This document shows, piece by piece, positions 1,840 to 58,269 of a stretch of DNA of 64,000 bases (positions are counted from its first letter, which is position 1; every line of letters begins with the position of its first letter). This DNA is from Dehalococcoidia bacterium (GTDB taxonomy: Bacteria > Chloroflexota > Dehalococcoidia > GIF9 > AB-539-J10), in assembly GCA_034414555.1 (NCBI GenBank), contig DAOUMA010000020.1:43771-107770 (forward strand), in the 5' to 3' direction. Position numbers and translations under genes: made by a program. Under the pieces are notes generated by a model. It made no database searches. It was not told where the DNA came from and saw only the letters and a list, made by a program, of their open reading frames with translations.

Positions 1840-2493
1840 ATGCCTGTTGAAAAAATTATCAAGCTGCTGGAGAGGGAATATGGCAAGCGAGGATGGCAGC
1901 CTGATGGGAAGCCGCTTGCTGGCTTGGTGCGCACCATACTTTCCCAGAATACCTCGGATACAAATTCAAGGCGTGCCTTCGATACGTTGATGTTTACCTT
2001 TGGTAGCTGGGAGGCTATCGCCTCTGCTCCTGTGGAACATATCGCTTATGCTATCAGGGTAGGAGGCTTATCTAAAATCAAGGCGATGAGGATAAAGGAA
2101 ATACTTAATCAAATTAAGAGGGAGCAAGATTGCATCAGCCTTGATTTCCTTAATTCAATGAATGCATCTGAAGCCAAGGATTATTTGATGAGGTTACCCG
2201 GGGTGGGTGAAAAGACCGCCAATTGTGTATTGCTTTTCTCGCTGGGCAAACCCTGTCTGCCGGTGGACACGCATGTTTTCCGGGTAGCCAAACGCTTGGG
2301 GTTGATTGACGCTAGAACATCTATAAAAGAGGCACCTCGCTTGTTACAACAGCAGGTCACGCCATCGGGGGTTTATCAGTTTCATATTCACATGATAGAG
2401 CATGGCAGGAAGATATGCCATGCTAGAAATCCCGAATGTGGTAGGTGTATATTGAGGAATGATTGCCCCAGTTCGTCCGCCCATCAAAGGTAA
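1840..2493 (+). CDS. nth: Endonuclease III (HhH-GPD, 4Fe-4S)
   Basis: LSQNTSD, HhH motif LPGVGEKTANCVL, VDTHV, C-terminal CHARNPECGRCILRNDC cluster motif. Confidence 0.95.
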   Translation: MPVEKIIKLLEREYGKRGWQPDGKPLAGLVRTILSQNTSDTNSRRAFDTLMFTFGSWEAIASAPVEHIAYAIRVGGLSKIKAMRIKEILNQIKREQDCISLDFLNSMNASEAKDYLMRLPGVGEKTANCVLLFSLGKPCLPVDTHVFRVAKRLGLIDARTSIKEAPRLLQQQVTPSGVYQFHIHMIEHGRKICHARNPECGRCILRNDCPSSSAHQR

Positions 2494-2510
2494 GTGGTAT
2501 AATTTTTACC

Positions 2511-3317
2511 ATGGCACAGATATTGCAGAGCAAGAATCTAGCTACCAAGTTCCAGATACTGCTGGAAATAGCGGCAAGTCAGCCGAATATACAGCAGAAG
2601 AACATTGCCGGAAAGTTGAATATCACTCCTCAAGCAGTCTCTGAGTATGTTAAGGATTTGATAAGCGATGGCTGGCTTGTCTCTCAAGGTCGCTCTAGAT
2701 ATCAGGTAACCAAAGAGGGTGTGGACTGGATTTTGAAAATGGCGCGGCAGTTGCAAAGCTACTGCTCATTTGTGAATAAAGTGGTGAGCGATATATCGGT
2801 TTCCACAGCAATAGCTGCTGATAATTTATCCAGTGGTCAATCAGTTTCACTATATATGAAGGGCGGCTTGTTATTTGCCTCGAACAAGTTAGCCCGGCGA
2901 GCAGCGAAGGGAATAGTGGTATTTGAGGCTAAGAAGGGTGAGGATGTTGGTGTCTCGCAGATAGAAGGGGTAATAGAGCTGAAGATGGGCGAGGTAATTA
3001 TTTGCAAGGTACCAAATGTGCGGGAGGGAGGGTCACGGAATGTTAACTTGGCTCGACTAAAGGAGGAGCTGGATAAAGGCAGGTTAGTTGGGGCGATTGG
3101 CAATGAGGCTCTGATTACCCTAAAAAGTATAGGTGTAAAGCCAGATTATCGCTATGGAGTCAAGGAGGCGATGGTGGAAGCAGCGTCCTGTGGGCAATCA
3201 TTCCTGGTAGTTTGTGCTGAAGATGTAGCTTCAGAAGCAGTTCGAGGACTGGAAGAGGAAAATCTGGAATATAAAATTGTTGATTTAATACGCAATAAGC
3301 AGTCTATGGAGACCTGA
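2511..3317 (+). CDS. Winged-helix transcriptional regulator (COG1497-like, MarR-type N-terminal HTH)
   Basis: N-terminal wHTH (QKNIAGKLNITPQAVSEYVKDL...GRSRYQVTKEG) plus a C-terminal domain. ATG 2511 lies 7 nt after TATAAT (2498-2503). Confidence 0.8.
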   Translation: MAQILQSKNLATKFQILLEIAASQPNIQQKNIAGKLNITPQAVSEYVKDLISDGWLVSQGRSRYQVTKEGVDWILKMARQLQSYCSFVNKVVSDISVSTAIAADNLSSGQSVSLYMKGGLLFASNKLARRAAKGIVVFEAKKGEDVGVSQIEGVIELKMGEVIICKVPNVREGGSRNVNLARLKEELDKGRLVGAIGNEALITLKSIGVKPDYRYGVKEAMVEAASCGQSFLVVCAEDVASEAVRGLEEENLEYKIVDLIRNKQSMET

Positions 3318-3363
3318 GCCATTCCACTTTAAGTTTGGGGCAATCCTTGGGCAAGACAATTAG

Positions 3364-3395
3364 GTTGCTTCGTTGCTGATGCTCCTCGCGATGAC
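3364..3395. repeat. REP-like palindromic unit (GTCATTGCGAG...GCAATC family)
   Basis: GTTGCTTCGTTGCTGATGCTCCTCGCGATGAC; related units at 6118-6140, 9209-9288, 10831-10920 and 51809-51828. Confidence 0.65.
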
Positions 3396-3407
3396 AAAAA
3401 GGGGGTA

Positions 3408-3469
3408 TTGACAGTTCATTAAAGGATTTTTATACTACAATCAAGTATGCTTGTCTATAATAAAGCAAG
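3408..3469 (+). promoter_or_regulatory. Sigma70 promoter plus palindromic operator (copy 1)
   Basis: TTGACA 3408-3413, 17-nt spacer, TATACT 3431-3436, then CAAG-TATG-CTTG 3442-3453 followed by TCTATAATAAAG; near-identical to the site at 6178. Confidence 0.85.
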
Positions 3470-3499
3470 CTTGTTTACGAAGTGAAAGGAGGGCTCGAA

Positions 3500-5464
3500 A
3501 TGGCTGATATCAAAAAGAGGATTGGTGCTTTTCTTGGTAGTTTATTGTTGATTCTTGCGTTTATGTTAACTATTTTGCCTATAACCATAGTTGCCTATTC
3601 TAATTACCCTTTATCATCCAGTGATACTGAAATAGCCAGTGCTTTAGATTACTTGCGTAACAACCAGACAATTCAAGGTGATATCGGGGGTTTTGCTACT
3701 TCAGCATGGGTGACTATGGCAATAGCTACTGCTGGGGAAGACCCGCATGATTGGAAGGCGGGAAACAATTCCTCCATCGTTGATTATCTCGCTACTAGTG
3801 CTGGGAACGCCACTTCAGTTACCGATTATGCCAGGATGACTCTAGCGATAGTTGCTGCCGATGAAGCCCCAACGAGCTTTGGGGGCAGAGATTTTGTAAA
3901 TCTGTTGAAGGGGCAATACAACAGCGGTCAGATTGGTGACACGTCCTTGCTCAACGATGATTTTTGGGGAGTGATGGCTCTTATTTCCGCTGGTGAAAGC
4001 TCAAGCTCAGAGATTGTTGCTAACTCAGTGGCTTTTATTAAGGATAATCAGAACGGTGATGGTGGCTGGAGTTGGGGAGTGGGGCAGGGTAGCGATGTCG
4101 ATGACACTGCCTGTGCTGTAATGGCTTTGATTGCTGCCGGGGAAAGTTCAAGCTCAAATGCTATCGCAAATGGCCTAATTTATATTAAATCCCAGCAGGC
4201 GGATAATGGTGGCTTCCTATCTTGGGGAACAACTAACCCGTCCACCAATTCTTGGGCAATTGACGCCATTGTAGCTGCGGGACAGAACCCGACGAGCAGT
4301 TACTGGACAAAGAATAATAATACCCCTATCGATGACTTACTTGGCTTTCAGGATACCACTAACGGCTCCTTCCCTGATTGGCAAGGCAACCCTTCTTCAT
4401 GGACTACTGCTTATGCCATACCAGCTCTTCTGGGCGAGCCGTATCCAGTCAAAATTCTGGAACCTGAAAAAAGGGTGCAGGTCTATGTAAGGATTGAAGG
4501 GCAATCCAGCACTATCTGGAGTGGGAATGTAACTGTTACCGAGTCTAATATTACGGCTGATAACAGCGGCAAAACTTATCATCTATCAGACCCAACTGCT
4601 CTGGGAGCTCTGGATGAGGCCTCCAACCATGAGGAGAGATTCTCGTATTATGTGACCGATAAATACGGAGGATTATATGTAAGTTCCATTGCTGGCGAAG
4701 AGCCGAGTGGAGCAAATGGCTGGATGTATCGGGTAGATTACTATAGCCCTAGCGTTGGCGCTGACCAATTTATACTTGGTGAGACAACGCCTCCGGCTCC
4801 TCCACATAGGGAAGTGCTTTTCTATTATGGAGCCTGGACTGCCTTTCCCTTGAAGATATCTGTAGATAAAACTGCAGTGGCTAAGGGTGAGGAATTCAGT
4901 GTCACCGTGAGCGTATATAATGATACTGCTCACGATTGGTCAGTTTGCGAAAATGCTACTGTCTATGCTGACCATGCTTACACAACTGGCAGTGATGGCG
5001 AGGTAAACATCACTATAGATAGGGATGGTGCCTTTAATGTCTTTGCTGAAAAGAGTGGCTGCATCCGAAGTGACAAGGTTTCAGTCACAGTAGGAACAGG
5101 GGTAGAAAGCTCTCACGGACAAGTCAACTTATCGGCCACAATTGCCCCGGCAATCTCTATTGAGGTAACTCCGGATAGTATCGATTTTGGCAATCTGGCA
5201 CTAGGATATACTGGCGATGCCCATACTATAACTATCGAGAATAAAGGTGGCCTGCCAGTTACAGTTACGGCTGAGGTAACTGACCAGGCGCAAGGCTTGT
5301 TTAGCAACGGGTTAAGACTGGATAATAACTCGTGGCATTCATTCAATGAGACAATAAATGTTAATGACAATTTGGAAACTCAAGCTAAACTGGCTGTTCC
5401 CCTAGATTACGCTGGCGTTGGCCCAAAGACCGGTACCTTAACTTTCTGGGCAGAGGGGGCTTGA
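3500..5464 (+). CDS. Secreted prenyltransferase/squalene-oxidase-repeat (alpha-barrel) + DUF4430 + Ig-like protein; candidate transcobalamin-like corrinoid-binding surface protein
   Basis: Signal peptide; repeats QNGDGGWSW/QQADNGGF/QDTTNGSF; DUF4430-like segment TALGALDEA...LYVSSIAG...GWMYRV...VGADQF; two beta-rich C-terminal domains; RBS AAGGAGGG. Confidence 0.8.
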   Translation: MADIKKRIGAFLGSLLLILAFMLTILPITIVAYSNYPLSSSDTEIASALDYLRNNQTIQGDIGGFATSAWVTMAIATAGEDPHDWKAGNNSSIVDYLATSAGNATSVTDYARMTLAIVAADEAPTSFGGRDFVNLLKGQYNSGQIGDTSLLNDDFWGVMALISAGESSSSEIVANSVAFIKDNQNGDGGWSWGVGQGSDVDDTACAVMALIAAGESSSSNAIANGLIYIKSQQADNGGFLSWGTTNPSTNSWAIDAIVAAGQNPTSSYWTKNNNTPIDDLLGFQDTTNGSFPDWQGNPSSWTTAYAIPALLGEPYPVKILEPEKRVQVYVRIEGQSSTIWSGNVTVTESNITADNSGKTYHLSDPTALGALDEASNHEERFSYYVTDKYGGLYVSSIAGEEPSGANGWMYRVDYYSPSVGADQFILGETTPPAPPHREVLFYYGAWTAFPLKISVDKTAVAKGEEFSVTVSVYNDTAHDWSVCENATVYADHAYTTGSDGEVNITIDRDGAFNVFAEKSGCIRSDKVSVTVGTGVESSHGQVNLSATIAPAISIEVTPDSIDFGNLALGYTGDAHTITIENKGGLPVTVTAEVTDQAQGLFSNGLRLDNNSWHSFNETINVNDNLETQAKLAVPLDYAGVGPKTGTLTFWAEGA

Positions 5465-5613
5465 ATCTCTGTCAGGAGTTTCTATTGGGGGTAGTCCTTA
5501 GCAAATTAGCCTTGGATCTTTGATGCTAGAAGTATATGGGAACCCAACTATGTAGGCCGGGAAGTAGCCTCTATAGCTACCCCTAAATTGGCATTCTATT
5601 AGTAGGTGAAATA

Positions 5614-6111
5614 TTGGCTAGAGCAGGTAAGCTTTTAATAGTTTCTTTGCTAGTGATTGTATTATCTTCTCTGTTTTCCCTTTCTTCAACGATGGCCGTA
5701 GGTGTGGGTGTTGCTCCTAAGGAGTTGGATTTCAATGTTTGTCCTGGAATGTCGGTTACCAAGGTATTATATGTGGTCAACACCGGAGACAACGAGACTA
5801 GTTATAAAGTGTATGTAGATGGGGAAAACCACAATCTGTTTGATATCTCTCCTGCAGGATTTTCTTTAGCTCCGCAAGCTAATAAGGCGGTGCAGATAAC
5901 TGTCTCTCCTCCCTTGCTTTCGGTTGGCGACCATGCTGCTTACATCTATGTAGCTGCCACAAATCCATCTGCACAGCTTGAGATGGGAGCGGGGATCAAG
6001 GTGACCGTTCACCTTCATATCGCTAGCTGGCCGTTGTATGTGGCGATTGGCATAATTGTTTTGCTTATAGCTCTAGCAGCATTTTTAGCCTGGAGAAGGA
6101 GAAGATATTGA
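5614..6111 (+). CDS. Exported Ig-like/PapD-like domain protein with C-terminal membrane anchor
   Basis: N-terminal signal sequence, beta domain (VGVGVAPKELDF...VVNTGD), C-terminal TM helix followed by WRRRRY; TTG start uncertain. Confidence 0.7.
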   Translation: MARAGKLLIVSLLVIVLSSLFSLSSTMAVGVGVAPKELDFNVCPGMSVTKVLYVVNTGDNETSYKVYVDGENHNLFDISPAGFSLAPQANKAVQITVSPPLLSVGDHAAYIYVAATNPSAQLEMGAGIKVTVHLHIASWPLYVAIGIIVLLIALAAFLAWRRRRY

Positions 6112-6177
6112 GACTGTGTCACTACGAGCAAGGCAATCTCGTAAATCCCAAATCCGAAATACTAAACAATGTCGGTA

Positions 6178-6240
6178 TTGACATTTCATTCTAGGTTATT
6201 TATACTAGCGTAGTCAAGCTTACTTGCTTATAGTAAAGTA
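6178..6240 (+). promoter_or_regulatory. Sigma70 promoter plus palindromic operator (copy 2)
   Basis: TTGACA 6178-6183, 17-nt spacer, TATACT 6201-6206, CAAG-CTTA-CTTG 6215-6226 followed by CTTATAGTAAAG. Confidence 0.85.
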
Positions 6241-6256
6241 GAATTGTTGTTATAAA

Positions 6257-6688
6257 ATGAAAAGGATTTGGCTCATACTGATAGTGCTACTTGCCGGGGT
6301 CGGAATAGTGGTAGGAGGAATAGGGCTTGCTAAAATTAATGAGTTAAATAATCGCCTTAATACCTTCGAAGAGGCATATGTTACTGAAAATGTAACCCTG
6401 TCTATAGATTATGGTGCTTTAAAGCCAACAGAATCACACGAGCTCTCACTACCAGGTAGTGCTACTGCCTGGGATGCGTTAAACAGAGTTGCTGAAGTTA
6501 ATGCAACCTGGTATGAAGAATATGGCTCTCACTTCATAAATGGTATTAATGGGGTGGGTACTGAGGAAACACTTCCGAGCCACTGGTGGCAGTATTATAT
6601 AAATGGAGAGATTGCGTCTGTGGGCGTTGATAAGCTCACCTTAGAAAATGGGGACCATATTGATTTCAAATATGAAGTTCCGTTATGA
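6257..6688 (+). CDS. Membrane-anchored DUF4430 (transcobalamin C-terminal-like) domain protein
   Basis: N-terminal TM helix; TAWDAL...FINGINGV...WWQYYINGEIASVGVDKLTLENGDHIDFKY is the DUF4430 pattern. Confidence 0.85.
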   Translation: MKRIWLILIVLLAGVGIVVGGIGLAKINELNNRLNTFEEAYVTENVTLSIDYGALKPTESHELSLPGSATAWDALNRVAEVNATWYEEYGSHFINGINGVGTEETLPSHWWQYYINGEIASVGVDKLTLENGDHIDFKYEVPL

Positions 6689-6706
6689 TATAAGGGAGGT
6701 GAGTAG

Positions 6707-7321
6707 ATGAAGATTTTGTCGGTATTTAAAAAAGAACTCAAAACGAAGAGGCCTCTTTTTGCGCTCATTCTACTAGGGATTGGGGGTCTGGGGCGACTCC
6801 TCCTGGCTGATGTGCCAAATATAGAAACCGTCCTCGTCGTCAGCATGCTTGCTGGGTGCATGCTCGGCGGTCTCTACACGCTCTTTATCCCTATTACAGT
6901 TATGGCGATTACTGATTTTCAGATATCAGGCAGTTTCCATCCCATTTTCTTAGCCACATGGTCAGGCTTTATTTTCCTTGGCTTCATTGGGTATTTACTA
7001 AGAAACAGGCGTCAAGCCTCCTTGGGATTCATTGGCATTCTCTTAGGCGCTGGTTTAGCTGGAACGGTTCTTTTTGATTTCTGGACTGATATTTGGTGGT
7101 GGTATTTGATGTATCCCGGGCATACGTTGAATAACTTCATCCAGGTGTTAATGCTTCAGATACCATTTACGCTGAGGCATCTCCTCTCTACGGCTATATT
7201 TGTGCCATTAGTCTCTGTTCCATTGCTCTATCTCTATGAGCATGGCTGGCAAGCAGCTTATAGCTTGATTAAAGGCATGCTTCGCCGGCCATCTGATGCT
7301 CGGTACGCTGCTTTTCGCTGA
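6707..7321 (+). CDS. ECF-type S-component (CbrT/DUF6580-like), candidate cobalamin uptake
   Basis: About 200 aa with about 6 TM helices, RLLLADVPNIETV motif resembling the CbrT PN-x-(Q/E) motif, co-transcribed with the DUF4430 gene. Confidence 0.7.
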   Translation: MKILSVFKKELKTKRPLFALILLGIGGLGRLLLADVPNIETVLVVSMLAGCMLGGLYTLFIPITVMAITDFQISGSFHPIFLATWSGFIFLGFIGYLLRNRRQASLGFIGILLGAGLAGTVLFDFWTDIWWWYLMYPGHTLNNFIQVLMLQIPFTLRHLLSTAIFVPLVSVPLLYLYEHGWQAAYSLIKGMLRRPSDARYAAFR

Positions 7322-7353
7322 ACTTGGCACCAAGACCATAGCCGTAATCCATA

Positions 7354-7535
7354 ATGGAAAGATATAAGAGGCGATTCACCTGGACCTATCAGGCTGAATA
7401 ATCCTCATCGGCATCGGAATTTTAATCCCGTTAAGTAGAAAATGGTTGGCAGGCTTTGGCGTTATCTCCGCCTTTATCTTCGGGCTTATACTGAATGTCT
7501 ATTTCTGGCGATACCTTGCCTGTGCTCGTAATTAG
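7354..7535 (+). pseudogene. Possible frameshifted small membrane protein remnant
   Basis: MERYKRRFTWTYQA (7354) joins IILIGIGILIPLSRKWLAGFGVISAFIFGLILNVYFWRYL if one base is restored near 7396. Confidence 0.25.
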
Positions 7536-7792
7536 CACCTTGCTCTTCGCTGAGCTTAACAGTTTCTGTTTCGGTGCTTCCTTGTTGGAATAATAGTATA
7601 TATAATAGTAAAATAGGGCTGAAGTGAAGATAATAAAATGGCTGGTAGCCAGAGTTTCGTGCCTTCAGCCAGGCAGAGAACTAAAATGTCAGTGGAGAAA
7701 CTATGTTTGGTTTACCGGGACGTTCTTACTACAGTTAGCGGAAGCAGTCCCGGAAGAGAATTGAGGGTTGTTACCGCTATGAAGGTACTAGC

Positions 7793-8845
7793 ATGCAAAT
7801 AGATGAGCTTCTTCGCCTAATGGTAGAAAAGGATGCCTCAGATTTACATTTGAGGGTTCCAAGCCCACCGGTGCTGCGTATCGATGGTGTGCTTATACCA
7901 CAGCAAGATTTGCCGCCAGTTACCCCCACAGATGTTGAAGAGGCTTTTGAGCATATTACTGTTGAAAGTCAACAGAAGGCTTTTCGCCAAAAACTGGAGT
8001 TAGATTTAGCCTACAGTGTTCCTGGGTTAGCTGGATTTCGAGTCAACGTGTTATACCAAAGAAGGACAATGAGCATCGCCTTCCGCCGGATACCACCTAC
8101 AGTTCCGACTATTGATGAACTCGAGTTACCCCAGATTTGCAAAAGTCTTATTCTTAGGCCCAGAGGGCTTATCTTGGTTACCGGGCCTACAGGAAGCGGC
8201 AAGAGCACCACTCTAGCCGCAATGATTGACTATCTTAATGAGAATGAAGAGCGGAACGTCATCACTATTGAGGACCCCATTGAATACTTGCATCAAAACA
8301 AAAAATGCATTATCGCCCAGCGAGAGCTGGGTGATGATGCTAAGTCATTCGCCAGTGCCTTGCTTCATGTTCTCCGTCACGACCCTGATGTGATTCTCGT
8401 GGGCGAGATGCGTGACCTGGAGACCATAAGCACAGCTATCACTGCAGCGGAAGCAGGACAGCTAGTGCTGACAACATTACACACCATTGATGCTGTCCAG
8501 ACTGTTGACCGCATAATTGATGTCTTTCCTCCCGACCAGCAACGCCAGATTAGATTACAGCTATCCCAGATAATAGAAGCGGTGCTGTCGCAGACCCTGT
8601 TGCCACGGATTGGAGGCAAAGGGAGAATAGCGGCTTTTGAGATTTTGGTTGCTACCCCTGCTGTTAGAAACTTAATTCGCACTAGCAAAACCTTTGAATT
8701 GCCCGGTATTATGCAGATTGGTGCTAAAGACGGTCTACAGACTTTGAACCAGTCATTAGCTTACCTGGTGAAAAACCACAAGGTCACTGCTAAAGAAGCT
8801 ATGAAGAGAAGCAGCGACCCAGAGCAACTTAAAAAGTTGATTTAG
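7793..8845 (+). CDS. pilT: PilT/PilU-family type IV pilus retraction ATPase
   Basis: ASDLHL, GPTGSGKST Walker A, TIEDPIE, LRHDPDVILVGEMRD, His boxes TTLHT. Confidence 0.92.
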   Translation: MQIDELLRLMVEKDASDLHLRVPSPPVLRIDGVLIPQQDLPPVTPTDVEEAFEHITVESQQKAFRQKLELDLAYSVPGLAGFRVNVLYQRRTMSIAFRRIPPTVPTIDELELPQICKSLILRPRGLILVTGPTGSGKSTTLAAMIDYLNENEERNVITIEDPIEYLHQNKKCIIAQRELGDDAKSFASALLHVLRHDPDVILVGEMRDLETISTAITAAEAGQLVLTTLHTIDAVQTVDRIIDVFPPDQQRQIRLQLSQIIEAVLSQTLLPRIGGKGRIAAFEILVATPAVRNLIRTSKTFELPGIMQIGAKDGLQTLNQSLAYLVKNHKVTAKEAMKRSSDPEQLKKLI

Positions 8846-9386: not shown

Positions 9387-10013
9387 TTATTTGCAAATTG
9401 GCTTACCAACCGGCAGAATCAACCTTCCAAAGCCATAGAGCAGTGTCAAGGCTATGCCAATGTAGAGCATTATCCAGCCACCTACTCCGATGCACCAACC
9501 AGCTATTACCCCCATCGTGTCCCATATTCCCATTGGCAAAGGACCATGCAAGGTATTGACAGCTAAAAAGAATATGCCAATCACAAATATGAGCAAGCCT
9601 ATAGAAATCACCCCACTCTGCCGTCCCAGGATCGGGACGAAAGTCGCCAGGATTATGCCAAGCACGAAATATACTATTCCATTAACAACGTTGGTGGGCG
9701 CAAGAATAAGACCAACAGTTGTTAGCGGCGATCCGCCCCACAGGAGGAACACGAAACTTAGCGCCGGAGCACCGAAGAACAGTACGCCGAAACATAGGTT
9801 CACTACTCCGGTAGTCGTATCCCCTCTTTTCAAGGCTATCAGCCCAACCATTGTTAGAAGCAGCGCTGCTGCGAAAAGCCAGGCAATGAAAACGGAGATA
9901 TCGGTTACCGGTATCCTGTGCGTCAGGATAGCCCAGACGGCGGTAGTGCCAGCAGCAGTGGCAAACAAACCCGCCGCTGTGGGGTCACCCCATGTTGACC
10001 CTTGCTGTGCCAT
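9387..10013 (-). CDS. GPR1/FUN34/YaaH (SatP-like) small-acid transporter, divergent
   Basis: 208 aa with about 6 TM helices; N-terminal WGDPTAAGLF resembles the SatP ANPAPLGL motif; GDTTTGVVNLCFG resembles the GNTFG..F..YG motif. Confidence 0.55.
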   Translation of the reverse strand: MAQQGSTWGDPTAAGLFATAAGTTAVWAILTHRIPVTDISVFIAWLFAAALLLTMVGLIALKRGDTTTGVVNLCFGVLFFGAPALSFVFLLWGGSPLTTVGLILAPTNVVNGIVYFVLGIILATFVPILGRQSGVISIGLLIFVIGIFFLAVNTLHGPLPMGIWDTMGVIAGWCIGVGGWIMLYIGIALTLLYGFGRLILPVGKPICK

Positions 10014-11536: not shown

Positions 11537-12145
11537 ATGGAATCAAGTGACAGGAAAAAGACAATAAGGAGGATATCCAAGTATCTTCTGGTTGTGATGG
11601 TTGCTTTGGCCTTGGGAGTTGGTTCTGCCTTATTGGGAGTTGGCCTTGTGACTGAAAAGGACTTGATTAGAAATGGAGCATGGTATACCGGTCTTACCTA
11701 TGGCAGTGAGCAAGCTGGGATGTATACCAGGGCTGCAATTGCTATTGAGGCCCTTTTTGCACTTAACAAATCTGAGGTGATTTATTACATGGCAGATACT
11801 GACGATGCTGGACAGCTACTTCGATCCTGCTGTGACTACAAAATTGAAGGTAGTAGTCTTGATCCGTATGCTTCCTGGTGGAGCATCACGGTATATGGCG
11901 GTGATAATTTTTTGATCCCCAACGAGCAAAACCGTTATTCCTACACCAACAAAAACATTGAGTATAACGAGGACGGGAATTTTACCATTTTTTTGTCATC
12001 GACTCCTAAAACGGGCAACTGGCTCCCTACAGGTAATCAAAAGAAAATCACTCTTTTTCTGCGCATATATAATCCCGCACCATCTGTTTATGAGAACCTC
12101 GATACTATTGAACTGCCCCATATTATAACGGAGAAATGTAAGTGA
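11537..12145 (+). CDS. DUF1214 domain membrane-anchored protein
   Basis: N-terminal TM helix; WWSITVYGGDNFLIPNEQNRYS, NWLPT, LFLRIYNP. Confidence 0.85.
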   Translation: MESSDRKKTIRRISKYLLVVMVALALGVGSALLGVGLVTEKDLIRNGAWYTGLTYGSEQAGMYTRAAIAIEALFALNKSEVIYYMADTDDAGQLLRSCCDYKIEGSSLDPYASWWSITVYGGDNFLIPNEQNRYSYTNKNIEYNEDGNFTIFLSSTPKTGNWLPTGNQKKITLFLRIYNPAPSVYENLDTIELPHIITEKCK

Positions 12146-12678
12146 AAGACTGGATAAAACTGGTAGTGATAACGCTTTTATTAGCTGCTGTGATTCATGT
12201 AACTACAGTTGCAGTGTTACCGTATGGTATTACACTTTACACCTTGCTAGGTATGCAGCACAGGACACCTGGCGGCCAGATGAATATGATATATCAGGCG
12301 CCTCCGACAACAGCCGATAGCAGAGATGTGGTTAGACCCTGTCCTGACCTTTTATACTCTATTTGCGTTTATGAGGTAAGCGATAAGCCGCTTCATATCG
12401 TTGCTCCAATACCTGATGGCACCTATTGGTCAATGTCGTTTTACGCATTTAACACAGATAATTTCTTTGTGGTGAATGACCGAACCGCTAAATCAAACCC
12501 GGCGGATATACTTCTTGTTGGGGAAAACATGCCTTACTACGATACTGGAAATTCAGAGGTGGTCATTGCCCCAAGCAACATGGGTGTTATCCTCTTTCGC
12601 ATTCTCGTTACGGATGAAAGTAAATTAAATGACCTGATGCAAGTTCAGGAACAAGCATACTGCAGCCTGGTTGATTGA
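12142..12678 (+). CDS. DUF1254 domain membrane-anchored protein
   Basis: VVRPCPDLLYSICVY, YWSMSFYAFNTDNF; 4-nt overlap with the DUF1214 gene. Confidence 0.85.
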   Translation: MKDWIKLVVITLLLAAVIHVTTVAVLPYGITLYTLLGMQHRTPGGQMNMIYQAPPTTADSRDVVRPCPDLLYSICVYEVSDKPLHIVAPIPDGTYWSMSFYAFNTDNFFVVNDRTAKSNPADILLVGENMPYYDTGNSEVVIAPSNMGVILFRILVTDESKLNDLMQVQEQAYCSLVD

Positions 12679-12886: not shown

Positions 12887-14302
12887 TTAAGTTAATGGTG
12901 GTTTCTTATCAGCCCAGGGGTATGCCTTCTCAAAAGCCGCTGACGCCCGAATCACTGTAGCCTCATCGTATCGCCTCCCCACAATCTGCAATCCCACGGG
13001 TAATCCCTCTTTGGTGAATCCACAGGGCACACTAGCTGCCGGTTGCCCCGTAAAGTTAAACGGAATGGTGAAGCAAGGGACGGCAGTGGGGCTGACGTCT
13101 TGTCCGTCTATCTTGGTGGGACCCAGAGGGGTCTCTACATCAAAGGCGGTTATGGGCATGGTGGGGGTGAGGAGAAAGTCGTAGTTTTCAAATATTTGGT
13201 GAATTTTAGCCCAGAGGTCCTCTCGATGAAATTGGGCCATAGCCATGTCTCGCGATGTAAAAGTGTCAGCCATTGGGATAAAAGGTCTATAAACGGAATA
13301 CATCACCTTCTCCCATTCCTCCCTGCGCTGTTCCACAGCAGCAGCTGTTTCACAGATTTCCAAGACCAGCCAGTCAGACTCGACATTAAGGAAATCAATG
13401 GTAATTTCCTCCACCTTACACCCTAAATCTTCAAATTGCCGAGCAGCCCTCCGGGTAATATCTCTTACCTCGGGCTCCACCAGGGCATAGCCTAGATTAG
13501 GACTCCAGGCAACTTTACAACCTTTCACACCGCCCTTGGTAGCCTGTATAAGGTCCATTTTCTGGGTAGGGAGGGAGAAGTGGTCTCGCTCATCAGGCCC
13601 GGCCATGACAGATAGCATCAATGTGCCATCGGCCACAGTCCTGGTCAGGGACCCTTCCGCAGCCAGTGTCTCCCAACCATGAATGGCGGGTTGACGGGCT
13701 ACCCGACCAAACTGAGGTTTTAGCCCATAAACGCCGCAGAAACTTGAGGGAATACGGATAGAACCACCTCCATCGTTCCCGTGGTGCAGAGGACCTAACC
13801 CGGCGGCGGCTGCAGCCGCTGCACCGCCGCTGGAGCCTCCAGGGGTCTTGGTTAAATTCCAGGGATTTCTGGTTGGGCCGAAAACGGGATTGTCGGTATT
13901 AGCAATAAGGCCAAATTCCGGAGTGTTGGTCTTGCCCAAAATAATCGCTCCTGCGGCTTTCAATTTTTCCACGAAGGCACAGTCTTCATCGGGGATGAAA
14001 TGTTCATAGAGTTTCGAACCGAATGTAGTACGGATCCCTTTGGTAAAGACGAGGTCCTTGATAGAAACTGGCACCCCATGCAGAGGTCCAAGAGTCTTTC
14101 CCTTCATCACGGCGTCTTCGGCTGCCTTAGCTGCGCTGCATGCCTCCTCAGCCCTGAGAGTTACATAGGCATTAATCTTGGGATTTATTTTCTCAATACG
14201 GTTCAAGATGGCATCTATTACCTCTACGGGAGAAAGTTTTTTCTGTTTGATGGCTGCTGCCATCTTTGTGGCGGGCATGAAACAAAGTTCTTCGTTTTTC
14301 AT
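12887..14302 (-). CDS. Amidase-signature family hydrolase
   Basis: GVPVSIKD (Lys), GGSSGG (cis-Ser), DGGGSIRIPSSFCG (nucleophile Ser). Confidence 0.92.
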   Translation of the reverse strand: MKNEELCFMPATKMAAAIKQKKLSPVEVIDAILNRIEKINPKINAYVTLRAEEACSAAKAAEDAVMKGKTLGPLHGVPVSIKDLVFTKGIRTTFGSKLYEHFIPDEDCAFVEKLKAAGAIILGKTNTPEFGLIANTDNPVFGPTRNPWNLTKTPGGSSGGAAAAAAAGLGPLHHGNDGGGSIRIPSSFCGVYGLKPQFGRVARQPAIHGWETLAAEGSLTRTVADGTLMLSVMAGPDERDHFSLPTQKMDLIQATKGGVKGCKVAWSPNLGYALVEPEVRDITRRAARQFEDLGCKVEEITIDFLNVESDWLVLEICETAAAVEQRREEWEKVMYSVYRPFIPMADTFTSRDMAMAQFHREDLWAKIHQIFENYDFLLTPTMPITAFDVETPLGPTKIDGQDVSPTAVPCFTIPFNFTGQPAASVPCGFTKEGLPVGLQIVGRRYDEATVIRASAAFEKAYPWADKKPPLT

Positions 14303-18442: not shown

Positions 18443-19057
18443 CTATCTTCTTGACTGAAGCCAGCCGATAAGTCTCACTTTACATCTGGGAATAGCCTTC
18501 AGCTCGTTATGATGCTTTGCTGCTAATATTACAACCACGCTTAGCATGAATAACGATTCCCAGTAGCTTGCCCCGGTAATTGCCAAATAGACCAGTGAGC
18601 CTGTTGGGCCGAGCATTACCGTCCAGGCGTCAGTTTCTATAAAAAGAAAGCCTAACAACATAAAGGCAGCAAACGTAATAAGCATCTCGTGGTGAGGCAG
18701 CGCCAGCAGCACACCAAAGGTAATGGCTACCGACTTGCCACCTCTAAAGCGAAGCAGCGGCGAGAAGGCGCTCCCTAATATCGCACTCACTGCCACTATC
18801 ATAACTGTTACTTCAGGTAACCCGAAGAACGAGTATGCCAGGGCTACAAAAGGTATACCTTTCGCTACGTCCAGAATTAAGGCAAGGCACCCCGCTTTGC
18901 GTCCCCCAGCTCGGAAGACATTGACCGTCCCTGGATTGCCGTCTCCGTAATCCCTTATGTCTTTGCCCAGGAGCCAGCGCCCGATCCATAACGAAAAGGG
19001 ACAAGCACCCAGGCAAAAAGCGCACACAGCCAGCGATATCGAATAAAGCCCTTCCAT
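18443..19057 (-). CDS. PlsY-like acyltransferase (second paralog)
   Basis: DIRDYGDGNPGTVNVFR, LDVAKG, FRGGKSVA; the His usually found before FS/FP is Ser (LGSAFS). Confidence 0.8.
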   Translation of the reverse strand: MEGLYSISLAVCAFCLGACPFSLWIGRWLLGKDIRDYGDGNPGTVNVFRAGGRKAGCLALILDVAKGIPFVALAYSFFGLPEVTVMIVAVSAILGSAFSPLLRFRGGKSVAITFGVLLALPHHEMLITFAAFMLLGFLFIETDAWTVMLGPTGSLVYLAITGASYWESLFMLSVVVILAAKHHNELKAIPRCKVRLIGWLQSRR

Positions 19058-28230: not shown

Positions 28231-29187
28231 ATGGTTACAGTAGGGATTCCGCGGGCTTTGCTTTATTACCAGTATTATCCTGCATGGAAGGTCTTCTTAG
28301 AGAAGCTGGGTGCGAAAGTAGTGGTATCAGCACCAACCAACAAAAGTATATTAAACTCAGGCGTTGCACGGGGTGTTCAGGATACTTGCTTGCCGGTAAA
28401 GGTCTTTTTTGGACATATCGTTTCATTGGTTAATGAATGTGACGTAATGTTTGTCCCTGCTGTTACCAGTTTAGGCAAGAAGAGTTATAATTGCTCCAAG
28501 CTTATCGGTTTGCCCAATATGGCAAGGGCTCTAATTCCAGAAAGCCCTCCCATTCTTGCCCCAGAGATAAATTGTGAAAAAGGTCGTTACAATTTGTACC
28601 GAAGTATCTATGGGGTGGGACGCTACTTTACCTCTAATCCATTTAAGCTTAAGAGAGCGGTGGAGGAAGCTTGGGCAAGCAATTTAGATTACCAGCGCAA
28701 AATGTCGGATGAAGGAATTACTCCTCTCCAGGCTATTGATTGCCAGCTGTCTCCTGATGTTAATCCTTCTTCATTTACCATCGCAGTTATCGGGCATCCC
28801 TATATTAGCTATGATGAATATATTAGTCATCGGCTTATTTCACAACTACAAAAGAAGGGAGTCAAAGTTGTTACCCCGGAGATGGTATCTCCGGAAGAGC
28901 TTGATGCTGCTACAAGAAGACTGGTGGGAGTTCCTCATTGGTTATTTGAATCCGAAATAATCGGCGCCGGAGAATATTACATGGAAACAGGGGTGGATGG
29001 TATAATTATTGTAGTTGCTTTCGGATGTGGTCCTGATTCGATGATGTTAGGCATGGTGCAGCATCGAGCAAGGGAGTTAAGCGTTCCTATTTTACCACTT
29101 AGTTTGGATGAGCATAGTAGCGAAGGGGGTTTGCTTACTCGATTAGAGGCCTTTTTAGATATGGTCAAGCGGAGGGAAAGAATATGA
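28231..29187 (+). CDS. DUF2229/acyl-CoA dehydratase-activase-related subunit (PlsA C-terminal-like)
   Basis: VGIPRALLYY, DTCLPVKVFFGH, NCSKLIGLP, AFGCGPD, LDEHSSEGGLLTRLEAF. Confidence 0.8.
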   Translation: MVTVGIPRALLYYQYYPAWKVFLEKLGAKVVVSAPTNKSILNSGVARGVQDTCLPVKVFFGHIVSLVNECDVMFVPAVTSLGKKSYNCSKLIGLPNMARALIPESPPILAPEINCEKGRYNLYRSIYGVGRYFTSNPFKLKRAVEEAWASNLDYQRKMSDEGITPLQAIDCQLSPDVNPSSFTIAVIGHPYISYDEYISHRLISQLQKKGVKVVTPEMVSPEELDAATRRLVGVPHWLFESEIIGAGEYYMETGVDGIIIVVAFGCGPDSMMLGMVQHRARELSVPILPLSLDEHSSEGGLLTRLEAFLDMVKRRERI

Positions 29188-30287
29188 GTGTAGGCTTTCC
29201 TCATTTCGGCAATGTTTATATCCCGATAAAAGCTATGGCAAGGAGACTGGGGGCTCCTGATGGTAAGGTAATAATTCCACCGCCGATAACACAACGCACA
29301 TTGGACCTCGGTGTTAAGTACTCACCGCAGGAAGCTTGCTTGCCGTATAAGCTCACCTTGGGTAGCTTGATTGAGGCTTGTGAGCTAGGTGCCGATACTC
29401 TGATTCAGGCAAGAGGGACTGGAATTTGCCGCTTAGGTTATTATGCTAAGGGTCAAGAGCAAATGCTGCAAGATCTGGGTTATAATGCTCATTTCCTCAC
29501 TTTGGATGTCTCTCACAACAAGTTTATAAGCATTATTCGACTTATACAGGGTATGAGCGATAATACCCCTTGGCGTGAAATTATCTCGGCATTTTTTTTC
29601 AGCATCGGTAAATTATCTGCGTTGGATAGAGTAGAGAAGGTGGTTCAGAGAGTACAGGCAGTGGAGGTTGAAAAAGGAACAGCTAGCCGGATTTACCGGG
29701 AGGCTGTCAATGCCGTTGATGAAGCAACCGACAGTAAGGAAATCAAGAAAATAACTAAAGAGTATATCCATAAATTAACACAGGTGCCCAAAGACACTAC
29801 TGCTAAGCCACTCAAAGTAGGCATTGTCGGGGAGATTTACGTGGTTATCGAGCCTTTCGCTAATATGGATATAGAAGTGGAATTGGGCAAGTTAGGAATA
29901 GAGGTAGAGCGAACCCTGACTCTTTCCCGATGGGTTAAATATAGTCTGTTTCTTAACTATCTTGGGGTAGATGAATGGAAGGAGGTTCATAAATTGGCTG
30001 GTCCTTATGTCGACCATGATATTGGTGGTGATGGTTGGGAATCGGTAGGGGAGAAGGTGCTCTATGATCACGAAGGGTTTGATGGTGTAATCCATTTAGC
30101 CCCTTTTACCTGTATGCCAGAGATAGTAGCTGAGAATATTATGTCATCGACAAAGGAGGATATACCCGTACTGGCTATTACTTGCGATGAACAGCAGAGT
30201 AAGCAGGGGATGTTGACCCGACTTGAGGCTTTCGTAGACTTAATAGGCTTTAGAAGGCGGAGAAAGGAGCATGGGAGAAGAGTTTAA
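29184..30287 (+). CDS. 2-hydroxyacyl-CoA dehydratase D-like subunit (PlsR-like)
   Basis: SPQEACLPYK, GICRLGYY, GIVGEIY, PFTCMPEIV, DEQ...TRLEAFVD. Confidence 0.8.
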   Translation: MSVGFPHFGNVYIPIKAMARRLGAPDGKVIIPPPITQRTLDLGVKYSPQEACLPYKLTLGSLIEACELGADTLIQARGTGICRLGYYAKGQEQMLQDLGYNAHFLTLDVSHNKFISIIRLIQGMSDNTPWREIISAFFFSIGKLSALDRVEKVVQRVQAVEVEKGTASRIYREAVNAVDEATDSKEIKKITKEYIHKLTQVPKDTTAKPLKVGIVGEIYVVIEPFANMDIEVELGKLGIEVERTLTLSRWVKYSLFLNYLGVDEWKEVHKLAGPYVDHDIGGDGWESVGEKVLYDHEGFDGVIHLAPFTCMPEIVAENIMSSTKEDIPVLAITCDEQQSKQGMLTRLEAFVDLIGFRRRRKEHGRRV

Positions 30288-30480
30288 AAATCTGAACAAG
30301 CTTGTCAAAAGTAAGCAGATGATAGTATTCTTTATTGTTATGAGCATCGGTTCGATTTTGTTTTACCCTATTTTAAAATTAAAGCAAAGAAAAGCGCTGG
30401 AATTGCAGGAAGACATAAAAGCCTCTAATCGGGGCAAATTTAGGAAGTTTGGTGGGACTTCTCTTGGGAAGTTAGAGTAG
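30271..30480 (+). CDS. Small single-TM hypothetical protein inside the activase operon
   Basis: 69 aa, hydrophobic segment MIVFFIVMSIGSILFYPIL; overlaps the upstream gene by 17 nt and ends 2 nt before the next ATG. Confidence 0.4.
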   Translation: MGEEFKNLNKLVKSKQMIVFFIVMSIGSILFYPILKLKQRKALELQEDIKASNRGKFRKFGGTSLGKLE

Positions 30481-30482
30481 AT

Positions 30483-31454
30483 ATGAAGGCTTATCTTGGC
30501 ATTGATGTTGGCTCGGTCACTACGAAATTAGCTTTGCTTGGTGAGGATGACCAGCTTATAGCCTCTACTTATCTGCGAACTCGGGGTAACCCGGTAAACA
30601 TGGTGAAACAGGGGCTGAGGGAAATAAAGAAGCAAATGTCGCGTGAAGTCGAAATTAGTGGGGTAGCCACTACTGGAAGTGGTCGTTATCTGGCTAGTGT
30701 GCTTGTTGGTGCTGATTTGGTGAAGAATGAGATTACCACTCATGCTGTTGCTGCCATGCAACATATACCTGATGTGCAAACAATTTTTGAAATAGGTGGC
30801 CAGGATAGCAAAATTATTGTAATCCGTGATGGTGTGGTCATTGATTTTGGTATGAATTCAGTATGTGCTGCTGGAACGGGAAGCTTCTTGGAGCATCAAG
30901 CGGAGCGTTTGAATGTAAGGATTGAGGATTTTGGAGAGCATGCTTTAAGGAGTGAGAATCCAGCGCGTATCGCTGGGAGGTGTACTGTTTTTGCTGAATC
31001 AGATATGATTCATAAACAGCAACTAGGATATCCTCTCGATGACATTATTTACGGTTTATGTCAATCCTTAGTGCGCAATTATCTTAATAATGTTGCTCTG
31101 GGCAAGGAAATTCAGCCCAGATTAGTATTTCAGGGTGGTGTTGCTTTCAATAAAGGGATAATCAGGGCATTTAATGAGGCTTTCGACTCTGGAGTTTACG
31201 TCCCACCCCACAATGAACTTATGGGTGCTATAGGGGCTGCCATTCTGGTGCACGAGGAAATGGAAATTAAGCAGGATCATCATAAGAGTAATTTTAAGGG
31301 ATTTGGTATCAGTGACATAGAATTCAAGACCTCTTCTTTCATATGTAAAGCTTGCCCGAATTTATGTGAAATCTCTCAAATTTCTGCTGATAGTAAAGTT
31401 TTAGCCCGGTGGGGAGGGCGTTGTGATATGTGGGAGAGGGTTCCAGAGAGCTAG
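30483..31454 (+). CDS. Acyl-CoA dehydratase activase (BadF/BadG/BcrA/BcrD ATPase, 4Fe-4S)
   Basis: GIDVGSVTTK, TTGSGR, EIGGQDSK, MNSVCAAGTG, RCTVFAES, C-terminal CKACPNLC...GGRC. Confidence 0.92.
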   Translation: MKAYLGIDVGSVTTKLALLGEDDQLIASTYLRTRGNPVNMVKQGLREIKKQMSREVEISGVATTGSGRYLASVLVGADLVKNEITTHAVAAMQHIPDVQTIFEIGGQDSKIIVIRDGVVIDFGMNSVCAAGTGSFLEHQAERLNVRIEDFGEHALRSENPARIAGRCTVFAESDMIHKQQLGYPLDDIIYGLCQSLVRNYLNNVALGKEIQPRLVFQGGVAFNKGIIRAFNEAFDSGVYVPPHNELMGAIGAAILVHEEMEIKQDHHKSNFKGFGISDIEFKTSSFICKACPNLCEISQISADSKVLARWGGRCDMWERVPES

Positions 31455-49505: not shown

Positions 49506-50666
49506 ATGGCTGAAGCAGAAAAACCAAAAGATATTACCTCACAGTGGATTGAAGGGCAACAGAATTTACTAAAAATGTGGCTGGATATGACTTCGCAAAG
49601 CATGGAACAAGCCATGTCTTTCTGGCAAAGCCCGGCTATCATGACTTCCCTTGGAGACTGGTATCAGAAATGGCTCAAGTCATTCCCCGAGGCTTTTCCT
49701 GTCCCGGAATCAACAAAGGGGCTCGGAGCTACAGTTCTTGAGCGGCTTTCCAGCGCTGCTAAAGTTTACCAAGACCTTCTAAGGTTCTGGGCTGATACCA
49801 TGATGGGGCTGGCTCAATTACAGCCTGGAACTACGCTCTCCGCAGAAAAAACTAAAGAGCTCTATGACCAGTGGGTGAAAAATTATCAAATCATGATGAG
49901 TTCCCTCTGGGGAGTAGTCCCTTCAACAGATGTTCAAGAGACAGTAAAAGCCCTGGAAAGTGCTACCGGTACTACTGCGGAATATTACTGGCGACAGATA
50001 GAGCCGGTACTCAAAAACTTAGAACAACTGCCCGAGACACTAAGCAAAATGGCTAAGGGTGAGAGTGGGGCTATGGTAGAGTTAACTGGAATATTCTGGA
50101 AGAATTACGAAGCTACCCTCGGCCAATCTCTGCGTGCCCCTACCTTCGGCTTTTTTCGGGGATTCACAGCTCTAATGAATAAGACAATCGATGCCTATAT
50201 CCGATTTAACACTGCTGTTGCTGAGTTTTATGCACTCTTTTACAACACCGGCCTGCATGCTGGTGAGAAGGTCTTCCAGCGACTATCAGAATTTCAGGGC
50301 AAGGAGCTCACGCCTGAGACCTTCCACGAGTTCTACCGAACCTGGTGGACAACTAATGAAGATGTCTACCACGACTTATTCTTGTCCCCACAGTTTATCA
50401 ATCTTCAAGGAGAAGTTGTTCGCCGGGGGCTTCTCTTCAGGAAGTGGCTTGACGATCTTTCCGACGAGGTCCTCAAGTTCACTAATCTCCCCACTAAGAA
50501 AGATATGGATGAGGTCTATCATTCAATTTATGAACTCAAGAATGAAGTTCGCTGGCAAAGACGCACTATCCACGACCTGGAGAATCACCTGAAGAGCTCA
50601 AGTGGTGGAGCCAAGACTACTCGGAGAACATCTAAAAGGGCTAGCCCAAAGGAGGGACAAATATGA
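49506..50666 (+). CDS. phaE: Class III PHA synthase subunit PhaE
   Basis: C-terminal NLPTKKDMDEVYHSIYELKNEVR PhaE box; overlaps phaC by 4 nt. Confidence 0.85.
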   Translation: MAEAEKPKDITSQWIEGQQNLLKMWLDMTSQSMEQAMSFWQSPAIMTSLGDWYQKWLKSFPEAFPVPESTKGLGATVLERLSSAAKVYQDLLRFWADTMMGLAQLQPGTTLSAEKTKELYDQWVKNYQIMMSSLWGVVPSTDVQETVKALESATGTTAEYYWRQIEPVLKNLEQLPETLSKMAKGESGAMVELTGIFWKNYEATLGQSLRAPTFGFFRGFTALMNKTIDAYIRFNTAVAEFYALFYNTGLHAGEKVFQRLSEFQGKELTPETFHEFYRTWWTTNEDVYHDLFLSPQFINLQGEVVRRGLLFRKWLDDLSDEVLKFTNLPTKKDMDEVYHSIYELKNEVRWQRRTIHDLENHLKSSSGGAKTTRRTSKRASPKEGQI

Positions 50667-52726: not shown

Positions 52727-52741
52727 CTTAAGGAGGAAATG

Positions 52742-58264: not shown

Positions 58265-58269
58265 GTTTT

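Follow-up and report, generated by a model that had tools for sequence, protein, structure and literature searches.

By what route might a Dehalococcoidia bacterium capture corrinoids outside the cell and carry them across its membrane? Cultured Dehalococcoidia are corrinoid auxotrophs, and many anaerobes rely on corrinoids from other organisms. The question is raised by four adjacent genes, here called A to D, at 3408-7321 of a 64,000-nucleotide (nt) stretch of contig DAOUMA010000020.1 (the window), for which an earlier note had proposed a surface-displayed, transcobalamin-like scavenger serving a CbrT-like S component of the energy-coupling factor (ECF) type. With modest confidence, we read the locus as a cell-surface system that captures and imports a tetrapyrrole cofactor, most likely a corrinoid (a cobamide or cobinamide), and in which an ECF-CbrT transporter has been displaced by an archaeal-type protein of the DUF6580 family.

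The four open reading frames (ORFs) were confirmed on the forward strand at the coordinates that the earlier note had given, as were the domains it had assigned to three of them, namely an alpha/alpha toroid with a DUF4430 domain in A, an immunoglobulin-like (Ig-like) domain in B and a DUF4430 domain in C. The left edge, 3408, coincides with the -35 hexamer of what scores as the region's strongest promoter-like sequence. The same gene order was found again in dozens of independent metagenomic contigs, so the arrangement is not due to chance. The features of the locus are as follows.

2508-3317, forward strand: winged helix-turn-helix (wHTH)-DUF7839 regulator; the ORF opens with TTG at 2463 and its likely start is ATG 2508
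3404-3480, forward strand: promoter P1 and leader, TTGACA-17-TATACT at 3408-3436, with the palindrome CAAGTATGCTTG at 3442-3453 as candidate operator
3500-5464, forward strand: gene A, 654 amino acids (aa) from ATG, a secreted or N-terminally anchored transcobalamin-like binder; toroid at about 40-320, DUF4430/SLBB beta domain at about 326-445, Ig-like domains at about 449-531 and 550-654
5614-6111, forward strand: gene B, 165 aa, a type-I membrane protein with one Ig-like (HYDIN/VesB, choice-of-anchor) domain
6174-6248, forward strand: promoter P2, TTGACA-17-TATACT at 6178-6206, with the palindrome CAAGCTTACTTG at 6215-6226, ahead of C-D
6257-6688, forward strand: gene C, 143 aa, a membrane-tethered DUF4430 (transcobalamin beta-domain-like) protein
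6707-7321, forward strand: gene D, 204 aa, a polytopic, S-component-like DUF6580 membrane protein, presumed to be a transporter
7322-7581, forward strand: non-coding debris of a cbrT 3' end between D and pilT, the right-hand scar of a replacement

The role of the cluster emerges from its relatives, for which a comparison set of 110 related loci (given L numbers below) was used. In Dehalococcoidia the usual cluster consists of the regulator, A, B, a DUF4430 gene, CbiQ/EcfT, a fused pair of ATP-binding cassette (ABC) ATPases (EcfAA') and an S component of PF12822/PF07155 (CbrT type). In a metagenome scan of 80 loci, whose genes were classed by hidden Markov models (HMMs) built from these sequences, 47 loci extend far enough to be informative; 42 of these carry ECF genes downstream, and 31 of the 42 have the complete set of T, AA' and S genes. 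The sister-locus S component has a single significant match in the PDB, over its full length, to 6FNP chain A, the CbrT subunit of Lactobacillus delbrueckii ECF-CbrT (E = 5.2e-12 with one sequence, 9.3e-17 with a profile of 14). As judged from sequence, this homology is the strongest link to corrinoids that was obtained. Because the sister A, B and DUF4430 genes precede a complete EcfT-EcfAA'-CbrT transporter, the view that the A-B-C-D locus is an uptake system is supported as well.

Tblastn with the EcfT and EcfAA' proteins of sister loci detected neither ecfT nor ecfA in the cluster or elsewhere in the 64 kb, and no significant domain-level match to an ABC ATPase or CbiQ was obtained among the 46 ORFs of the window searched with Pfam. 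The earlier note had reported the first of these absences for the cluster, and it holds throughout the window, but it is a derived state that arose when C-D took the place of the ECF-CbrT genes, and not the design of the system. A native Dehalococcoidia design without ECF genes was considered and rejected in view of the 42 informative loci that have them.

The C-D segment replaced DUF4430-ecfT-ecfAA'-cbrT, with its right breakpoint near 7322. This follows from the cbrT debris, the shared flanks and the absence of any blastn match in the window to L001 2700-6618. Against L001, which has the ECF version, A with its upstream region is 84% identical, B 69% and pilT 91% (blastn), and pilT and the gene of a 208-aa membrane protein flank both versions of the cluster. 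That second flanking gene, at 9387-10013 on the reverse strand beside pilT, encodes a multi-helix protein that belongs to no Pfam or NCBIfam family and is kept in L001 at 66% identity. Positions 7324-7562 match L001 6619-6851 (blastn), which comprises the last 70 nt of cbrT and the sequence downstream, and for the debris region as a whole nucleotide identity is 82%, with L001 6619-6851 and 6425-6584 as counterparts. When 7300-7800 is translated or searched by tblastn, the fragments GTKTIAVI/MERYKRRFTWTYQAE (ending at a stop), IPLSRKWLAGFGVISAFIFGLILNVYFW and STLLFAELNSF appear in different frames interrupted by stops. The last six codons of D run into the cbrT debris, in another frame. In sister loci where cbrT is intact, its 3' end recurs once or twice as a partial copy just downstream (L001 6730-6930, L033 9535-9735, L064 13505-13950), so the region was prone to duplication before the replacement took place.

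The replaced variant is common to L028 and L031, and comparison with L028 reveals a mosaic. Positions 5947-7957, which run from the last third of B across C and D into the beginning of pilT, are 96% identical in nucleotides. C is 98% identical to its L028 copy with a synonymous divergence (dS) of 0.075, and the dS of D is 0.035, compared with 0.37 for A (87% identical) and 0.93 for B, whose 5' part gives no blastn alignment. With dS so far below that of A and B, the C-D cassette is either much younger than its neighbours or was recently exchanged between lineages.

What took the place of the ECF transporter? D belongs to DUF6580 (PF20221; 61.3 bits against a cutoff of 27, residues 15-169), a family with 887 representatives at 50% identity (E <= 1e-3). 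This is the only Pfam match of D, which falls outside the ECF S-component families PF12822 and PF07155. Single-sequence phmmer returned no match to D in the PDB, whereas a profile of D and its homologs gave one, 6fnp_A (CbrT), at E = 0.0017 over residues 6-76. Alignment of the DUF6580 family with the CbrT-type family of Dehalococcoidia by hhalign reached a probability of 93% (E = 3e-7; 159 of about 200 columns), pairing the invariant E40 of D with the invariant Q87 in the loop-1 motif of the CbrT-type proteins, and F154...H158 with their F195...H199 in the last helix; several CbrT-type proteins also score on the DUF6580 HMM made here. The AlphaFold2 model of D (predicted local distance difference test score, pLDDT, 85.5; predicted template-modelling score 0.78) has the six-helix S-component fold. 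Its best fold match is BtuM in complex with cyanocobalamin (Foldseek probability 0.99; template-modelling (TM) scores 0.58/0.64), followed by the folate protein FolT and other S components; over all these top hits, BtuM included, probability ranges over 0.99-0.66 and TM over 0.45-0.64. Invariant polar residues are N38, E40, D124, T127, Q151, T155, H158 and S161. The label of CbrT-like S component that the earlier note attached to D is thus right as to fold and remote homology and wrong as to family: D is a divergent S-component relative of CbrT and not a member of the CbrT family.

C consists of an N-terminal hydrophobic segment (residues 1-28) followed by DUF4430 (Pfam E = 3.6e-17), and a single-sequence search found no match to it in the PDB. 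Its best match is the DUF4430 partner of a DUF6580 protein in L004 (35% over the full length, 4e-28), and it is closer to such partners than to the DUF4430 proteins of ECF-type loci, which indicates that C and D came in together. The same module is found elsewhere. Two other Chloroflexota contigs, L029 and L030, contain A-B-C-D as a tightly packed operon in a different neighbourhood, and D of L029 keeps 65% identity although synonymous sites are saturated. L004 has a set of DUF4430 (with dockerin), DUF4430 and DUF6580 genes. A scan of one genome per species, made with only two peptide patterns that could miss divergent bacterial members, yielded 20 relatives of D, all of them archaeal: Thermoplasmata, Methanomassiliicoccales, Nezhaarchaeota, metagenome-assembled genomes labelled 'Methanobacteriota', and Altiarchaeota. 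A small membrane-tethered DUF4430 gene adjoins DUF6580 in 18 of these 20 loci, and likewise in L004, L005 and L028-L030; 15 of the 20 also have a regulator homolog no more than 3.5 kb from DUF6580. No EcfT or EcfA was found in the flanks of any of these 20 archaeal loci or of L004, L005 and L028-L030, nor any ECF gene in the flanks of about 30 DUF6580 or DUF6580-like loci.

The secreted partner varies. Most archaeal DUF6580 loci also encode a secreted DUF4430 protein of 560-640 aa fused to a PQQ-type beta-propeller, and individual cases with a PQQ-type propeller or PKD in place of the toroid are L005 5846-7531, L013 1303-2997 and L107 4234-5805. Different 'scavenger heads' thus appear on one base of tethered DUF4430 and DUF6580. 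The toroid form also occurs in archaea: five archaeal metagenomic loci, with aRF1 and Ftr among their neighbours, encode a toroid and DUF4430 protein about 50% identical to A, flanked by a DUF4430 and PKD protein, a small DUF4430 protein and an S-component-like protein intermediate between PF07155/PF12822 and DUF6580; no ECF genes were found at these five loci. The closest relatives of the C-D cassette outside Chloroflexota are archaeal, and in a neighbour-joining tree without support values the DUF6580 proteins of Chloroflexota form one clade, sister to Nezhaarchaeota and nested in archaeal diversity. A transfer from archaea had been suggested in the earlier note from domain style. The sequence comparisons support an archaeal connection for D, the C-D pair and the regulator, alongside the archaeal homologs of A, and leave the direction of transfer unproven.

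Is A a transcobalamin? It begins with a single hydrophobic segment (residues 6-36), and AGGAGG lies 7 nt upstream of its ATG. Pfam recognises SQHop_cyclase_C/Prenyltrans repeats in the toroid and DUF4430 (PF14478) at 366-426 (28.2 bits against a cutoff of 23.8), and NCBIfam a choice-of-anchor-D Ig-like domain at the C-terminus (543-649). The AlphaFold2 model, built from 35 homologs with a mean pLDDT of 90, shows a 12-helix toroid at about 43-311 with pLDDT above 90, then the beta domain, then two beta-sandwich domains. The earlier note had suggested a Foldseek comparison with transcobalamin, and its outcome bears out the two-domain architecture: transcobalamin (TC), haptocorrin (HC) and intrinsic factor (IF) make up the top 14 PDB matches (E = 5.6e-12 to 1.2e-9), in alignments of about 450 columns that cover both domains, whereas squalene-hopene cyclases rank after them (E = 1.7e-7). 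Sequence identity to TC, HC and IF is only 12-15%, and a profile of the A family gives sub-significant matches to the TC beta domain (E = 0.15-2.2; 5no0 at 363-417, E = 0.15). As far as the model goes, A has the fold and architecture of transcobalamin, but not membership of its Pfam family. By likeness to transcobalamin, a bound corrinoid is predicted to sit in the cleft between the two domains. More than 600 homologs of A were found, and every named one is from Dehalococcoidia or Chloroflexota; A is 82% identical to its L001 counterpart, with a ratio of nonsynonymous to synonymous divergence (dN/dS) of 0.22 (0.22-0.24 overall).

B always stands after A in the Dehalococcoidia loci. It has a signal-like N-terminus, a HYDIN/VesB-like Ig domain (29.2 bits against a cutoff of 25.5) and a C-terminal hydrophobic segment (132-163) followed by RRRRY. 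It is a fast-evolving surface protein, with 55% aa identity to its counterparts in L001 and L028 and a dN/dS of 0.26-0.37. From its constant position and its topology, B is presumed to be a membrane tether or adaptor for A. The possibility that B and the C-terminal Ig domain of A are recognisable, perhaps pairing, paralogs found no support (BLASTP E = 0.099 over 13 residues).

Expression of the cluster appears to depend on a protein regulator. The upstream gene encodes a winged HTH of the MarR/HTH_24 kind (HTH_24, 2e-8) and a C-terminal DUF7839 domain (2.7e-27; both Pfam); ATG 2508 is taken as the likely start since the N-terminus then lines up with that of the homolog in L002 (L002_reg). Of 60 loci with room for such a gene, 49 have a homolog of this regulator ahead of their A homolog. 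Its closest PDB matches, DtxR/SloR-type metalloregulators, cover only the HTH, and a resemblance of DUF7839 to a solved ligand-binding domain was accordingly rejected. P1, like P2, matches 11 of the 12 bases of the sigma-70 consensus; no site in 2300-8000 scores higher, and the region around P1 is conserved in L001 and related loci. P2 repeats the promoter-leader segment that precedes A, with 87% blastn identity to that segment in L001, and the repeat is shared by L028 and L031. CAAG-N4-CTTG stands just past the -10 element in 21 of 54 regulator-A intergenic regions, its arms kept and its four central bases variable. This pattern fits an operator of the adjacent wHTH-DUF7839 regulator, which probably represses both P1-A-B and P2-C-D through it, without a B12 riboswitch.

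Taken together, these parts suggest the following route. A would be displayed outside the membrane by its own N-terminal anchor or through B, and would clamp its ligand between toroid and DUF4430 beta domain in the fashion of transcobalamin. The ligand may then be handed to C, whose one DUF4430 domain sits on a short tether, and from C to D, the six-helix S-component-type protein, for passage across the membrane. Ancestrally, and still in most Dehalococcoidia loci, the last step belongs to a dedicated ATP-driven ECF transporter of EcfT, fused EcfAA' and a CbrT-type S component; in the present locus D may either work alone like BtuM or borrow an ECF module from elsewhere in the genome. The swap of ECF-CbrT in situ and the lack of ECF genes around DUF6580 suggest transport by D without a dedicated ATPase module. 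We infer the hand-off order, the role of B, the autonomy of D and the pairing of regulator and operator from this set of observations. A wider proposal, which we hold tentatively, is that DUF6580 proteins are ECF-independent corrinoid transporters derived from S components, obligately paired with a tethered DUF4430 protein and controlled by a cofactor-sensing wHTH-DUF7839 repressor, and that this archaeal module moved into Dehalococcoidia and there displaced ECF-CbrT.

Corrinoids are the best-supported ligand on three counts: the S component of the sister loci is homologous to CbrT, A folds like TC, HC and IF, and the closest fold to that of D is BtuM. Several points weigh against this assignment, which is an indirect one. 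A has no match to Pfam Cobalamin_bind (PF01122), even at E <= 10, and the archaeal A homolog of L107 scores 17.1 bits on that family, below the cutoff of 25. The model of A superposes on holo-TC with a root-mean-square deviation of about 24 A and TM scores of 0.29/0.45, its domains being placed differently, so that a closed pocket for the ligand is hypothetical. The Foldseek E-values behind the BtuM match of D are weak (0.38 or worse). Neither the window, scanned whole at the gathering threshold and over 2400-7900 at E <= 10, nor 32 related loci (L001-L003, 20 DUF6580 loci and 9 ECF-CbrT-type loci) contains a cobalamin riboswitch (RF00174 clan). No reductive dehalogenase, cob/cbi or btu gene, and no other corrinoid-dependent or corrinoid-salvage gene, was found in the 64 kb; the earlier note had set the locus in the context of organohalide respiration, a framing that receives no support from this neighbourhood.

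The lack of a B12 riboswitch or B12 gene near the scanned loci would suit the same machinery with heme, or another non-corrin tetrapyrrole or cofactor, as its ligand. So would the only operon of such architecture to have been studied experimentally, lsa1836-1840 of Lactobacillus sakei, which is tied to heme uptake: less heme accumulated after its deletion, a defect that complementation repaired (bioRxiv 10.1101/864751). Archaea with these proteins, moreover, often make their own B12 and may scavenge some other metabolite (Burroughs et al., 2007; PMC1796856). On the other side, the match of the sister S component to the B12-specific CbrT spans its full length, and ECF-CbrT, a carrier of cobalamin and cobinamide, is not subject to competition by hemin (PMC5997447); the best structural relatives of A are all corrinoid binders, the best fold match of D is a B12 complex, and the L. 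sakei study left cobalamin out of its tests. Heme or a similar ligand is therefore unlikely, if far from negligible. Rather more weight is due to a serious, though still doubtful, alternative that makes D an ordinary S component served by a shared (group II) EcfAA'T module, whose genes would lie elsewhere in the genome, with transport still driven by ATP. D is homologous to CbrT, which is inactive without its ECF module and, when solitary, cannot support B12-dependent growth (PMC5997447), and the search for such a module covered 64 kb of the genome. Speaking for autonomy instead, about 30 DUF6580 or DUF6580-like loci lack flanking ECF genes whereas all 42 CbrT-type loci have a dedicated module, the replacement took out precisely that module, and BtuM and solitary BioY are S-component folds able to work alone (PMC6072759).

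The replacement itself could be read as decay: uptake would have ended with the loss of ECF-CbrT, and C-D would be an insertion with no link to it. The cbrT debris and the missing ATPase and T genes agree with this. Yet A, B, C and D are intact, and A retains its low dN/dS; the four genes form a tight operon in the different surroundings of L029 and L030, C-D has its own copy of the promoter and operator of A, and the DUF4430-DUF6580 pairing is conserved across phyla. A decaying pseudolocus was rejected on these grounds, and we regard it as very improbable. Least probable of all is that the toroid of A is an extracytoplasmic enzyme of the class II terpene cyclase kind, or an isoprenoid binder. 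By sequence the toroid is indeed closest to terpene cyclases (squalene-hopene cyclase and drimenyl-diphosphate synthase), and the invariant S198-D-V-D-D-T-A of residues 198-204 (window 4091-4111) aligns with the catalytic DxDD of class II enzymes, the match falling on the segment that holds the catalytic Asp in drimenyl-diphosphate synthase (7xq4/7xr7). All 35 sequences compared have D199 and D201, 29 of them have D202 as well, and archaeal A homologs carry the motif too. A is nevertheless secreted or surface-located and fused to DUF4430, is always encoded together with a transporter of the vitamin type and a DUF4430 protein in one operon, and matches TC, HC and IF in its two-domain fold better than it matches cyclases. 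Transcobalamin presumably has a comparable helix-cap motif, S-x-D-T-A (S-V-D-T-A), and in our opinion SDVDDTA is a structural or ligand-contact helix cap common to the toroid superfamily. The capture and import of a corrinoid through A, C and D thus remains the reading we prefer.

How much of this was already known? Transcobalamin-like SLBB/DUF4430 scavengers of B12 or its precursors were predicted in bacteria and archaea, with archaeal members that include beta-propeller fusions, by Burroughs, Balaji, Iyer and Aravind (Burroughs et al., 2007; PMC1796856). Like A, the proteins they described combine SLBB/DUF4430 with an alpha/alpha toroid and Ig domains and are secreted or surface-bound; like the sister loci, their operons contain ECF-type CbiO/CbiQ genes. 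The window differs in having a DUF6580 protein in place of CbiQ/CbiO (EcfT/EcfA), and the Ig-like B, the tethered C and the wHTH-DUF7839 regulator are absent from that description (PMC1796856). The central idea of the earlier note is therefore already in the literature: an uptake system with a TC-like A stands, but its likening to the route of intrinsic factor is not new. The work on L. sakei proposed that extracellular proteins resembling the alpha and beta domains of TC feed an ECF transporter (bioRxiv 10.1101/864751). Compared by parts list, lsa1836-1840 corresponds to the Dehalococcoidia sister loci, with an S component, a fused EcfAA', EcfT, a TC-beta-like and a TC-alpha-like protein. The alpha and beta domains are separate proteins there, whereas here they are fused in A and joined by an extra tethered beta protein, C; the ECF part kept in L. 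sakei has been lost from the window.

Among known transporters, CbrT (PDB 6FNP) shares with D the E/Q position of the loop-1 motif and the F...H motif of the last helix, but D belongs to DUF6580 and has no adjacent ECF module. In L. delbrueckii, cbrT lies in nrdJ-cbrS-cbrT-pduO, a context of B12 enzymes (PMC5997447) that the window locus does not share. BtuM of Thiobacillus denitrificans (PDB 8C7P/6FFV) is independent of an ECF module and binds B12 at its outer face (PMC6072759). It has an S-component-like fold in common with D, of which it is the best structural match, while single-sequence and profile searches detected no sequence relationship between the two. Unlike D, BtuM has no DUF4430 partner, and its essential Cys80 in loop 3 has no demonstrated counterpart in D. 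The only cysteine of D, Cys51, is shared by 9 of 15 aligned homologues, namely the window protein and its closest relatives P0122-P0129 (the tree places P0129 beside an archaeal Nezhaarchaeota sequence); the remaining six, P0130-P0135, are more distant and have Val or Ala there. Animal TC, IF and HC share with A an alpha6/alpha6 toroid followed by a beta domain; A differs in its membrane anchor or signal and its two extra Ig-like domains, and delivery would be to a membrane transporter instead of an endocytic receptor. The logic of passing a ligand from a high-affinity surface binder to a membrane transporter is also that of the Bacteroides lipoproteins BtuG and BtuH, which feed corrinoid to BtuB; these proteins belong to unrelated families and work at the outer membrane by a TonB-dependent route. 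BtuG is a beta-propeller, and some archaeal DUF6580 loci have beta-propellers fused to DUF4430.

The remaining gene content of the window is housekeeping only (DnaB, EF-G, GroEL, FeoB, polyhydroxyalkanoate (PHA) synthase, electron transfer flavoprotein (ETF), pilT). A few arrangements may be recorded. Two DUF2229 (CoA-enzyme activase-associated) proteins followed by a BcrAD/BadFG-type ATPase at 28231-31454 look like an activator of the 2-hydroxyacyl-CoA dehydratase/benzoyl-CoA reductase type. The class III PHA synthase subunits PhaE and PhaC occupy 49506-51769, with the ETF beta and alpha genes next at 51926-53743. At 59839-62036 the gene of an N6/N4 DNA methylase overlaps the ORF that comes next, of 391 aa and no Pfam family, and the two may form a restriction-modification pair. 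Two paralogs of the PlsY-type glycerol-3-phosphate acyltransferase (18443-19057, reverse; 57647-58264, forward) and two amidase-family genes (12887-14302, reverse; 58270-59730, forward) are present, one PlsY-amidase pair being adjacent at 57647-59730. A DUF1214/DUF1254 gene pair at 11537-12678 overlaps at start and stop.

As far as the literature searched shows (DUF6580, transcobalamin-like proteins, and ECF or corrinoid systems of Dehalococcoidia), such a variant has no prior description. What is new would be the DUF4430-DUF6580-(wHTH-DUF7839) module, its displacement of ECF-CbrT at a fixed site with scars, and the A-B layout of Dehalococcoidia. No literature on DUF6580 was found, and we know of none on DUF7839. 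The natural swap of ECF-CbrT for DUF4430-DUF6580 at one position is close to the strongest genomic evidence that can be had for two systems doing the same job, and it offers a concrete, testable function for both families, the first for DUF6580. The exchange of a cassette between Archaea and Chloroflexota is thereby documented, and the regulator points to control of corrinoid uptake in these lineages by a protein instead of a riboswitch. Should D prove to work alone, it would represent a second type of solitary B12 transporter, independent of BtuM, and the locus would bear on the capture of corrinoids by monoderm, wall-less or archaeal cells, a process that is poorly known.

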